A stretch of 64,000 nucleotides of DNA from a virus (lineage: Duplodnaviria; Heunggongvirae; Uroviricota; Caudoviricetes). The notes below the pieces were generated by a model that worked only from the letters and a program-made list of their open reading frames with translations, did not search any database and was not told the origin of the DNA. Shown here in pieces: positions 35,278-36,324 of this stretch. A program made the translations under genes and the position numbers. The stretch is from the IMG/VR virus record IMGVR_UViG_3300043399_000371, positions 100,285-164,284 of that record, one strand, 5' to 3'. Positions within the stretch are counted from its first letter, which is position 1; every line of letters starts with the position of its first letter.

Positions 35278-36324
35278 TTAGATTTCTGGGTGATGACTTG
35301 GATTTATATGAGTCGGATGATCATATTCTCCATACTCTTCTAGTTTCTTATGATCTGGATGAACCATAACATGATGTATATGATATTTCTTTAAAATAGC
35401 CTTACCATCATTATACTGTCTATCCAATTGTGAATCTTCTAATTCATCATGGTGTTCTGTACCAAGATAAGTCACTCTAGCCCCATGATGTAGTATAACC
35501 TCATTCTCATCGTATTTGGTATGATGAACTGCGCTAAGACCAGCATCAGGTTTTATATGATATCGAACAATATGATGAACCTGTACATCCTGATCATCAT
35601 TTGCCTCAGGATGCCTTATGCCATTATACTTGTCCTGTTTCCTCTCATTATTAGCATAAAGATCAGAGAAATTACTAGCAACTCTCTTGGATGAAGATGT
35701 GCTTGTAAACCCTGCTAAATGATGATCAGAACCTCTTCCAGAATTCATTAACTTCTCACCAATCTCTCTAGGTACAGCACCCCAAGTTTTTATTGGTTTG
35801 ATATTAGTATTCTCGGGTGTAAATGCAGATGATAAATTCTGTACTGCCCTGTGAGTACGTTTAGGATCATGCATATAGACACCAACACTCTTATTCCCCA
35901 ATTTATTTCTCAAGTAACCATTAATATTAGCAGAGGAAGCATAACCAGCATCAGGATCTTTAGAACCAGTAGATGTATAGTGTAGTATAGATCCCTTATG
36001 AATATCGGATAATCCTTCTGGCTTTACATCTGGGTGATCATGAAAATCCGCATCATACCCAGCACCATATCCATTATTTTTACTATTTCTAGGATATTTG
36101 TATGGATCATTAAACTTCTCATCATCTGGATTATAGTAAGGAGGATCAGCAATAGCTTCCTTGATACTTTTCTTACCTCTAATCTCAGCAAATGAAGAAT
36201 CCCATGAGAGTACATCAGGTTTCTTTTTAACTGGTTCACTCCTAATTTCTGCATGAGACGAATCCCAAGAAAGAATACTAGGTTTCTTTTTCTTTTCTTT
36301 AGTATATTGTTTAAACGATTTCAT
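35278..36324 (-). CDS. CTS-bearing ADP-ribosyltransferase-like protein (Alt/Mod-like R-S-E class); candidate injected effector
   Basis: CTS MKSFKQYTKE. Tandem 17-aa repeat KKKPSILSWDSSHAEIR / KKKPDVLSWDSSFAEIR. ART-like STS motif HLAGFTSTSSS and ExE motif YDENEVIL, with upstream Arg candidates. Confidence 0.55.
   Translation of the reverse strand: MKSFKQYTKEKKKKPSILSWDSSHAEIRSEPVKKKPDVLSWDSSFAEIRGKKSIKEAIADPPYYNPDDEKFNDPYKYPRNSKNNGYGAGYDADFHDHPDVKPEGLSDIHKGSILHYTSTGSKDPDAGYASSANINGYLRNKLGNKSVGVYMHDPKRTHRAVQNLSSAFTPENTNIKPIKTWGAVPREIGEKLMNSGRGSDHHLAGFTSTSSSKRVASNFSDLYANNERKQDKYNGIRHPEANDDQDVQVHHIVRYHIKPDAGLSAVHHTKYDENEVILHHGARVTYLGTEHHDELEDSQLDRQYNDGKAILKKYHIHHVMVHPDHKKLEEYGEYDHPTHINPSHHPEI

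Follow-up and report, generated by a model that had tools for sequence, protein, structure and literature searches.

The ADP-ribosyltransferase gene and its parts

A 64,000-nucleotide stretch of DNA, called the window below, covers positions 100,285 to 164,284 of the IMG/VR virus record IMGVR_UViG_3300043399_000371. On its minus strand, at 35278..36324, lies a gene for an ADP-ribosyltransferase (ART)-like protein, whose start ATG overlaps the stop codon of an upstream gene for a GNAT acetyltransferase (ATGA). The gene is read here, with a probability of roughly 0.6, as encoding the precursor of an arginine-specific mono-ART that an uncultured T4-like phage packages into its head and injects into the host. 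The coordinates and motifs quoted in the original prediction, which left the strand unstated, are all present in this single open reading frame (ORF), and a plus-strand reading of 35278-36324 is ruled out by a translation full of stops. An identical protein, P0001, was found on a 168,163-bp JGI metagenome contig and on a Logan contig. The parts of the gene, from the N-terminus of the product onward, are as follows.

35278..36324, minus strand: complete coding sequence, 348-aa precursor, from ATG to stop (stop codon 35278-35280)
36295..36324, minus strand: leader, aa 1-10, MKSFKQYTKE, of the T4 internal-protein capsid-targeting type, with aromatic residues at positions 4 and 7
36241..36291, minus strand: repeat copy 1, aa 12-28, KKKPSILSWDSSHAEIR
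36178..36228, minus strand: repeat copy 2, aa 33-49, KKKPDVLSWDSSFAEIR; the copy kept in all homologs, with L39, S40 and W41 at least 90% conserved
36157..36165, minus strand: I-K-E, aa 54-56, predicted prohead-protease site, fitting the L/I-X-E rule of T4 gp21
36061..36156, minus strand: variable linker, aa 57-88, of low confidence in the AlphaFold2 model and absent or very different in homologs
35281..36060, minus strand: ART catalytic domain, aa 89-348, beginning at the family-specific HDHPDVKP motif
35908..35910, minus strand: R139 (in YLRN), NAD-binding Arg of the R-S-E triad, at least 90% conserved and aligned with HopU1
35695..35703, minus strand: S208-T209-S210 in HLAGFTSTSSS, the STS motif; S208 and T209 invariant, S210 at least 90% conserved; aligned with FTSTST of Vis
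35500..35508, minus strand: E273-N-E275 in YDENEVIL, the arginine-type catalytic ExE; both Glu invariant and aligned with E-A-E of Vis

The catalytic domain

Among 5.8 billion proteins searched, 52 homologs were found, most of which already carried the Pfam annotation PF03496, and an alignment of 39 homologs, with 31-53% identity to the query, underlies the conservation figures given here (homologs are labelled P and their loci L). Residues conserved in this alignment include Y116, S131, N135, L138, R139, F168, N174, S208, T209, S210, E273 and E275. PF03496 (ADPrib_exo_Tox) meets the window protein itself with an E-value of 1.8e-4 and 21.4 bits, just below the gathering cut-off of 23.4 bits; scanned singly, 33 of the 39 aligned homologs match it (E<=0.01; best E 9.5e-15) and six match PF01129 (NAD:arginine ART).

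A single-sequence search of PDB sequences with the window protein gave no match. The family profile, compared with solved structures, found Vis (1.6e-5) and HopU1 (3e-3), with ExoT and ExoS weaker, and its alignment pairs the FTSTS and ExE segments with those of Vis and the niNgyLRn segment with EVNNYLRL of HopU1. An AlphaFold2 model built on the family alignment has a mean predicted local distance difference test score (pLDDT) of 83.5 and a predicted template modelling score of 0.81, with residues ~80-345 mostly above 90. When this model was compared with the PDB by Foldseek, nothing but ART toxins was returned (Certhrax, C3cer, Vis, C3bot, Plx2A, VIP2, C2-I, CDTa, SpvB), with E-values from 1.6e-8 to 1e-6, a probability of 1.0 and ~235-250 aligned columns for Certhrax, C3cer, Vis, C3bot and VIP2. 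Among viral models (BFVD), the matches are ARTs of uncultured phages, ARTs fused to MuF or portal domains, and Alt proteins of T4-like phages of Aeromonas, Acinetobacter and Vibrio.

Residues ~89-348 thus almost certainly form an R-S-ExE ART fold with intact catalytic residues. The ART assignment of the original prediction, made from an upstream Arg, an STS and a Q/ExE motif, is borne out by the conservation among the 39 homologs, by the alignment with Vis and HopU1, and by the structural comparison with Certhrax, C3, Vis and VIP2. The ExE motif and the nature of the best neighbours argue for arginine specificity, by analogy with those enzymes.

The domain includes a His-rich C-terminal beta-hairpin extension. 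The whole protein has 28 His residues (8%) and no Cys, and the conserved His-rich segment at aa 314-348 follows the pattern HHV.VHP.HK.LEEYG.Y.HP. Within it, L328-E329-E330 fits L-x-E, and T4 Alt is likewise processed at its C-terminus; the His-rich segment, however, is modelled confidently as part of the fold, and the Glu is not invariant.

The leader and the neighbouring leader-tagged proteins

In T4, the propeptides of the internal proteins (IPs), of 10-19 residues, are capsid targeting sequences; targeting depends chiefly on residues 4 and 7 and processing on residues 8 and 10, while the prohead protease gp21 cleaves after L/I-X-E (PMC9026906). In the T4 genome (NC_000866), ipII and ipIII start with MKTYQEFIAE ahead of A, and ipI starts with MKTFKEFTSTTTPVSTITE ahead of A (MKTFKEF..). 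The family to which the window protein belongs has the leader consensus MK(S/T)FK(E/D)(Y/F), with F4 at least 90% conserved. The original prediction of a targeting peptide agrees with these data: MKSFKQY shares the pattern of the IPI, IPII and IPIII leaders, and the gene occupies the T4 ip slot beside denV.

The leader pattern is specific. In the strict form MK[ST][FY]..[FY], it occurs at only two ORF starts in the window, namely those of the ART gene and of the gene directly upstream. A looser expression, applied to 42 kb of T4, recovers exactly ipI, ipII and ipIII; at the homolog loci, it recovers genes clustered with ART, save for three false positives (in L003 and L012, the gp46-like N-termini; in L007, a TTG ORF on the minus strand). 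The genes recovered encode a methyltransferase-like protein in L003 (MKTFKQILEE), proteins of 112 and 159 aa directly upstream of ART in L011 (MKSFKEYIIE and MKTFKDFLNE), a 342-aa protein in L013 that starts with MKSYQEILTEAKEILTEA, a tandemly duplicated L-T-E site ahead of A, and five further ART paralogs in L005.

The second leader-bearing protein of the window is the GNAT acetyltransferase, whose leader is near-canonical, with I-L-E at residues 8-10. It is a probable second packaged effector and a candidate for an injected acetyltransferase. It also matches positions 2693-2797 of the 3925-position PHROG 10691, which may be a giant polyvalent virion protein.

The likely propeptide, its predicted cleavage site and the tandem repeat

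The tandem 17-aa duplication reported after the leader is present, at aa 12-28 and aa 33-49. The two copies are identical at 14 of 17 residues and 38 of 51 nucleotides, far above chance, and seven of the 14 conserved codons differ synonymously; this synonymous divergence indicates that the duplication is old and no assembly artefact, and that purifying selection acts on both copies. The idea of the repeat as a module for processing or linking is plausible and can be made more precise: the units lie inside a longer, likely propeptide that ends at an invariant [ILV]-x-E56. E56 is the sole invariant residue of the N-terminal region, and position -2 is occupied by I, L or V in 39 of 39 homologs. 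The T at residue 8 makes residues 8-10 a poor site, and the cut is predicted downstream, after E56. The predicted result is a 56-aa propeptide and a mature enzyme of ~292 aa starting at A57 (AIADPPYY), for which the expected neo-N-terminal, semi-tryptic peptide would be AIADPPYYNPDDEK.

Across the family, the propeptide is 31-71 aa long and contains one to three copies of a conserved 11-17-aa unit. A loose regular expression applied to 97 members counted roughly 31 with one unit, 43 with two and seven with three. P0058 holds three nearly identical 19-aa units, and several lineages have paired copies of their own (LSFDSSFGEH, FFPWSASF, SWLDIPNFDELRNKV and GLNLYAHxELR, each twice). Repeat identity averages 58% within a protein and 45% between proteins, and the likeness of copies within one protein is striking in P0002, P0008, P0024, P0041, P0042/P0065, P0050 and P0058 (three copies). 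Such a pattern points to recurrent duplication or gene conversion of the units. Strict concerted evolution of the two copies was considered and found only partial support, with a copy's own partner as its best match in seven of 21 cases.

In the 550-aa homologs, leader, repeats and I-Q-E stand together at the N-terminus, ~270 residues before the ART domain, a layout which speaks for a module of the N-terminal address and processing region and not of the catalytic domain. The units themselves are unsupported as canonical gp21 sites, since their P3 residue is F, H or N instead of L or I. A profile search with the N-terminal region for the module on other cargo, limited by its word index, returned only three short fragments. 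In the AlphaFold2 model, repeat 1 has a pLDDT below 50 and repeat 2 of 60-69, with a three-residue strand and a short helix; this fold signal is only a hint that repeat 2 might dock. In the favoured reading, the units would serve as extra core-binding or processing modules of the propeptide.

Phage type, gene order and expression signals

The elements that surround the ART gene are listed below.

33993..34478, minus strand: denV-like pyrimidine-dimer glycosylase gene, the synteny anchor
34629-35141, plus strand: HNH/AP2 homing endonuclease gene, inserted between the ART gene and denV
35238..35276, no strand: bidirectional intrinsic terminator, a 16-bp stem between A and T runs, ending the GNAT-ART operon and the convergent HNH gene
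36321..36695, minus strand: GNAT acetyltransferase gene, 124 aa, upstream of ART and translationally coupled to it, with leader MKSFISFILE ahead of S
36724..36731, minus strand: late-promoter-like box CATAAATA, matching TATAAATA at 7 of 8 positions, 29 nt ahead of the GNAT ATG
36901..36929, minus strand: perfect sigma-70 promoter, TTGACA-17-TATAAT, ~205 nt upstream of the GNAT-ART pair

The window contains a series of T4-type genes, for a gp2-like DNA end protector, a tail-tube-family protein, a baseplate hub protein, a gp32-type single-stranded DNA-binding protein, an exonuclease and a gp63-type RNA ligase. The best matches of its DNA ligase gene (~40-42% identity) include Pseudomonas jumbo phages of the PA5oct type and Vibrio phages of the nt-1/KVP40 type. 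The loci of the homologs hold regA, gp62, gp44, gp45, gp59, gp32, rIIB, topoisomerase subunits, RNase H, gp25 and gp6, and these T4-type surroundings indicate that the ART family lives in T4-like phages.

The gene order points in the same direction as the leader. T4 has e-ipIII-ipII-denV on one strand; the window has GNAT-ART, then the HNH gene on the other strand, then the denV-like gene and the RNA ligase gene. In L011, three leader genes are followed directly by denV, and denV adjoins ART or sits a few genes downstream in L011, L003 and L005. L011, a related locus of the same gene order, has ART and denV adjacent without an HNH insertion.

As for expression, the T4 late-promoter box TATAAATA occurs 12 times in the window against 5.1 expected, and several ORFs have it 19-33 nt ahead of their start, with examples at 21631, 22967, 28128 and 29936 on the minus strand and at 394 on the plus strand. 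Judged from these boxes, the phage appears to use T4-type late promoters. In four of seven independent homolog loci, the exact box precedes ART or its operon by 19-180 nt; the distances are as follows, with T4 for comparison.

L014: 19 nt upstream of ART
L012: ~180 nt upstream of ART
L003: ~145 nt upstream of ART
L011: 30 nt upstream of a five-gene operon containing ART
T4: 29 nt upstream of alt

In L013, the gene of a 550-aa homolog sits between the baseplate genes gp25 and gp6. The ART family is thus likely to be expressed late, but for the operon in the window the signals are ambiguous.

Upstream of this operon, the segment 36700-37830 is 1.1 kb without a long ORF and is packed with repeats. 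CTATTGACAATCCTCTGAGA.. occurs four times in it, and there are two exact pairs, one of 23 nt (ACTGTATCGGAAAAACAACACAA) and one of 22 nt in tandem (ATTCTCGCTTCTGGTTCTGGGA); several inverted repeats consist of the same TTGACA-containing unit. The segment may be a promoter or operator array or a set of small-RNA genes; a search of it against Rfam gave nothing at the gathering threshold.

Elsewhere in the window, 24 tRNA genes lie on one strand (minus) between 16509 and 30304, amid small ORFs, a set unusually complete for a ~168-kb phage. One further RNA gene was found.

9867-10237, minus strand: transfer-messenger RNA (tmRNA), Rfam beta_tmRNA 138 bits and tmRNA_permuted 128 bits, with the tag ANDERFALAA given by ARAGORN

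A TATAAATA box stands immediately upstream of it, at 10232-10239, and the type of tmRNA hints at a betaproteobacterial host.

Proposed mechanism and alternative explanations

According to the proposed mechanism, the ART precursor would be co-expressed with the similarly tagged small GNAT protein, and its leader, with aromatic residues at positions 4 and 7, would direct it into the prohead scaffolding core. A gp21-type protease would then cut after I-K-E56, removing the 56-aa propeptide with its two LSWDSS(H/F)AEIR units and freeing the ~292-aa enzyme that starts at A57. Ejected together with the DNA, this enzyme would ADP-ribosylate one or more arginines of host proteins in an NAD+-dependent manner at the very start of infection, an early host modification comparable to the action of T4 Alt on RNA polymerase alpha. 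Packaging of the ART into the head is the firmer of the two central steps and can be called probable, whereas cleavage at E56 is slightly favoured over the contrary.

Several observations weigh against this interpretation. A gene for the gp21 prohead protease was found neither in the window nor in the fetched flanks of the homologs, and its absence from the window is among the reasons why packaging and cleavage stand as inferences. Residues 8-10 of the window protein (T-K-E) are not a canonical L/I-x-E, and some family members (P0070, P0075) have no leader at all. The perfect sigma-70 promoter, together with a late box that matches at only seven of eight positions, would permit early expression without packaging. 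Judged by the profile search, limited by its word index, the repeat module appears specific to the ART family, so that an ART-specific role, such as inhibition, is conceivable; neighbouring leader-bearing proteins lack the repeat, and the short leader alone serves them. The target and the residue specificity are drawn entirely from analogy. The weakest point of the explanation is the idea that copy number (one to three) tunes the enzyme load.

The alternative that survives best, although it is unlikely, is an ART that is expressed early, stays out of the head and works inside the already infected cell in the manner of T4 ModA and ModB, with an N-terminus that provides stability, localisation or partner binding. 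Its main support is the ambiguity of late expression in the window, where the perfect TTGACA-17-TATAAT precedes GNAT-ART and the late box is imperfect. The surrounding tRNA, denV and RNA ligase genes are of early or middle type in T4, yet T4 ipII and ipIII occupy the same "early" neighbourhood beside denV. The tandem ART paralogs of L005 and L007 recall modA-modB, but the profile alignment by hhalign to ModA and ModB reaches a probability of merely 4-5%. An early cytoplasmic enzyme would also fit poorly with a T4 ip-type leader that is common to unrelated neighbouring enzymes, with the invariant [ILV]-x-E56, and with homologs that have exact late boxes or lie among baseplate genes.

More doubtful is the possibility that the ART is packaged but keeps its repeats on the mature enzyme, being cut near E10 or not at all, so that the units would do their work in the host, for instance as short linear motifs for target binding. 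The repeats are under purifying selection and occur with the ART domain only, a canonical I/L-x-E stands at residues 8-10 in many homologs, and repeat 2 is modelled with moderate confidence and some secondary structure. Retention of the repeats, however, would leave unexplained the invariant Glu of [ILV]-x-E that stands right after them even in the 550-aa homologs, and the T at position 8 is shared with T4 IPI, which is cut at a downstream I-T-E.

A variant of the packaged-precursor reading, just as speculative, sees the repeat-bearing propeptide as a zymogen-type inhibitor. Its units, each of which ends in a conserved Glu-x-Arg, would dock on the arginine-specific ART like a pseudo-substrate and hold it inactive in the cell that makes it, until the prohead protease cuts at E56 in the capsid. 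The result would be a protease-armed, ejected toxin whose repeat copy number (one to three) evolves fast by duplication or gene conversion.

It is improbable that the domain is an NAD+-depleting glycohydrolase or a nucleic-acid-modifying or RNAylation enzyme instead of a protein-arginine transferase: ART folds do include DarT, pierisin and Scabin, which act on DNA, and ModB, which performs RNAylation (general knowledge and PMC9503650), but R, STS and ExE together mark arginine-specific protein ARTs, Vis, HopU1, ExoS/T and PF01129 rank as the best matches, and one homolog is preceded by a gene for an ADP-ribosylglycohydrolase of the DraG/ARH family, whose characterised members free ADP-ribose from ADP-ribosylated proteins (PMC9503650).

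Comparison with known systems

The packaged-precursor reading joins features of two groups of phage proteins. Head-packaged ARTs are an established theme, represented by T4 Alt and by MuF-, portal- and polyvalent-protein fusions (PMC9503650), and leader-tagged internal proteins are likewise established (PMC3012670, PMC9026906).

T4 Alt is a protein of a T4-type phage with an R-S-ExE ART domain, in which the LxSAF, F(V/T)STS and NE(M/N)EVIL segments line up with those of the window protein, and NEMEVILPR stands at the place of DENEVILHH. Alt also has an N-terminal propeptide ending in I-x-E, as predicted for the window protein, and its gene has a late promoter, as do several of the ART homologs. 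It differs in its length of 682 aa, of which an N-terminal region of ~400 aa has no counterpart in the window protein, in a propeptide of ~6-7 aa (MELITE) that is not of the MK(S/T)F type, and in its position, as alt adjoins gene 30 (DNA ligase) and not denV. Orthology with Alt was rejected, given the 348-aa length, an hhalign probability of 22% over 114 columns and a DNA ligase gene 19 kb away (55081-56370). Orthology with ModA and ModB, early ARTs of ~200 aa, was rejected as well (hhalign probabilities of 4.6% and 4.3%).

With the T4 proteins IPI, IPII and IPIII, the window protein shares a leader of the form M-K-S/T-F/Y-x-x-F/Y, a predicted cut after aliphatic-x-Glu and a locus beside denV; with IPI, it additionally shares T at residue 8 and a cut site farther downstream. 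The T4 IPs, in contrast, are small, basic and non-enzymatic or anti-restriction proteins with propeptides of 10-19 aa, whereas the cargo in the window is an enzyme. The conserved repeat unit of the ART propeptide is not seen in them, and such a repeat of variable copy number within a long propeptide is the single feature for which no precedent has been described.

Among solved structures, the nearest relatives of the window ART are bacterial arginine-ART toxins. The fold and the R/STS/ExE set are common to Vis, HopU1, ExoS/ExoT and the C3/VIP2/Certhrax group (PF03496). Unlike these toxins, the window ART has no secretion signal and no type III secretion or binary-toxin delivery domain, and delivery by phage ejection is predicted for it. 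The HDHPD(V/I)KP motif and the His-rich C-terminal hairpin are also the family's own. Phage ARTs fused to MuF, portal or polyvalent proteins (Iyer et al. 2022, PMC9503650) share the concept of a head-packaged ART and are structural neighbours in BFVD; they are packaged through fusion to a structural domain, whereas the window ART would rely on a short cleavable leader.

Family size and related loci

The window protein has no significant match in PHROGs. In 50,697 phage records, no match was obtained by tblastn with the window protein (E up to 5), the homolog P0016 or the 60-aa N-terminus, nor by megablast with 12 kb. At 50% identity, the family comprises 122 clusters at E<=1e-30 and 234 clusters at E<=1e-10; every source name is "hypothetical protein", and no cultured representative is among them. 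It is a new, uncharacterised and sizeable family that combines two known themes, packaged ARTs and leader-tagged internal proteins.

Some of the related loci show features of their own. In L005 (3201-12550), six ART paralogs lie on one T4-like phage contig, with MKSFK as the leader of five and MIKFK as that of one; five are near-contiguous, and the sixth (3201-4079), beside a denV-like gene, has Q-x-E in place of E-x-E. In L007 (9126-11618), a gene for an ADP-ribosylglycohydrolase (PF03747) immediately precedes that of the ART homolog P0041, with which it could form a writer-eraser pair; directly downstream of P0041 follows a second, divergent leader-bearing ART with the repeat pair IMQTWFGYHSE and IMQTSFGSHGIE. 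The 550-aa homolog of L013 (8133-11653) is arranged as leader, repeats, I-Q-E, a His-rich insert of ~270 aa and the ART domain, with the 342-aa protein nearby. L014 (16696-19650) contains NAD+ salvage genes a few kb downstream of the homolog P0030, namely a fusion of NUDIX and CTP_transf_like (nucleotidyltransferase-type) domains and NAMPT. Finally, the family profile matches 7-10 distinct stretches in each of P0119, P0147, P0148 and P0180, very long proteins of 1665-2377 aa that look like arrays of many ART-like domains.

Significance

Nothing known is overturned by this analysis, as head-packaged ARTs are already an accepted theme and the gene described here would be a new example of a known strategy. 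If the interpretation is correct, the T4 internal-protein leader would be a general, portable address label in environmental T4-like phages, one that loads whole enzymes (ARTs, an acetyltransferase and a methyltransferase-like protein) into the head, beyond the small anti-restriction proteins. A sizeable and so far unstudied ART family, with up to six paralogs in one phage, would be defined as well. The predicted cleavage site, the neo-N-terminus at A57 and the variable-copy unit would offer testable handles on the dose and activation of cargo in heads, and they could also serve to engineer protein delivery by T4-type capsids.

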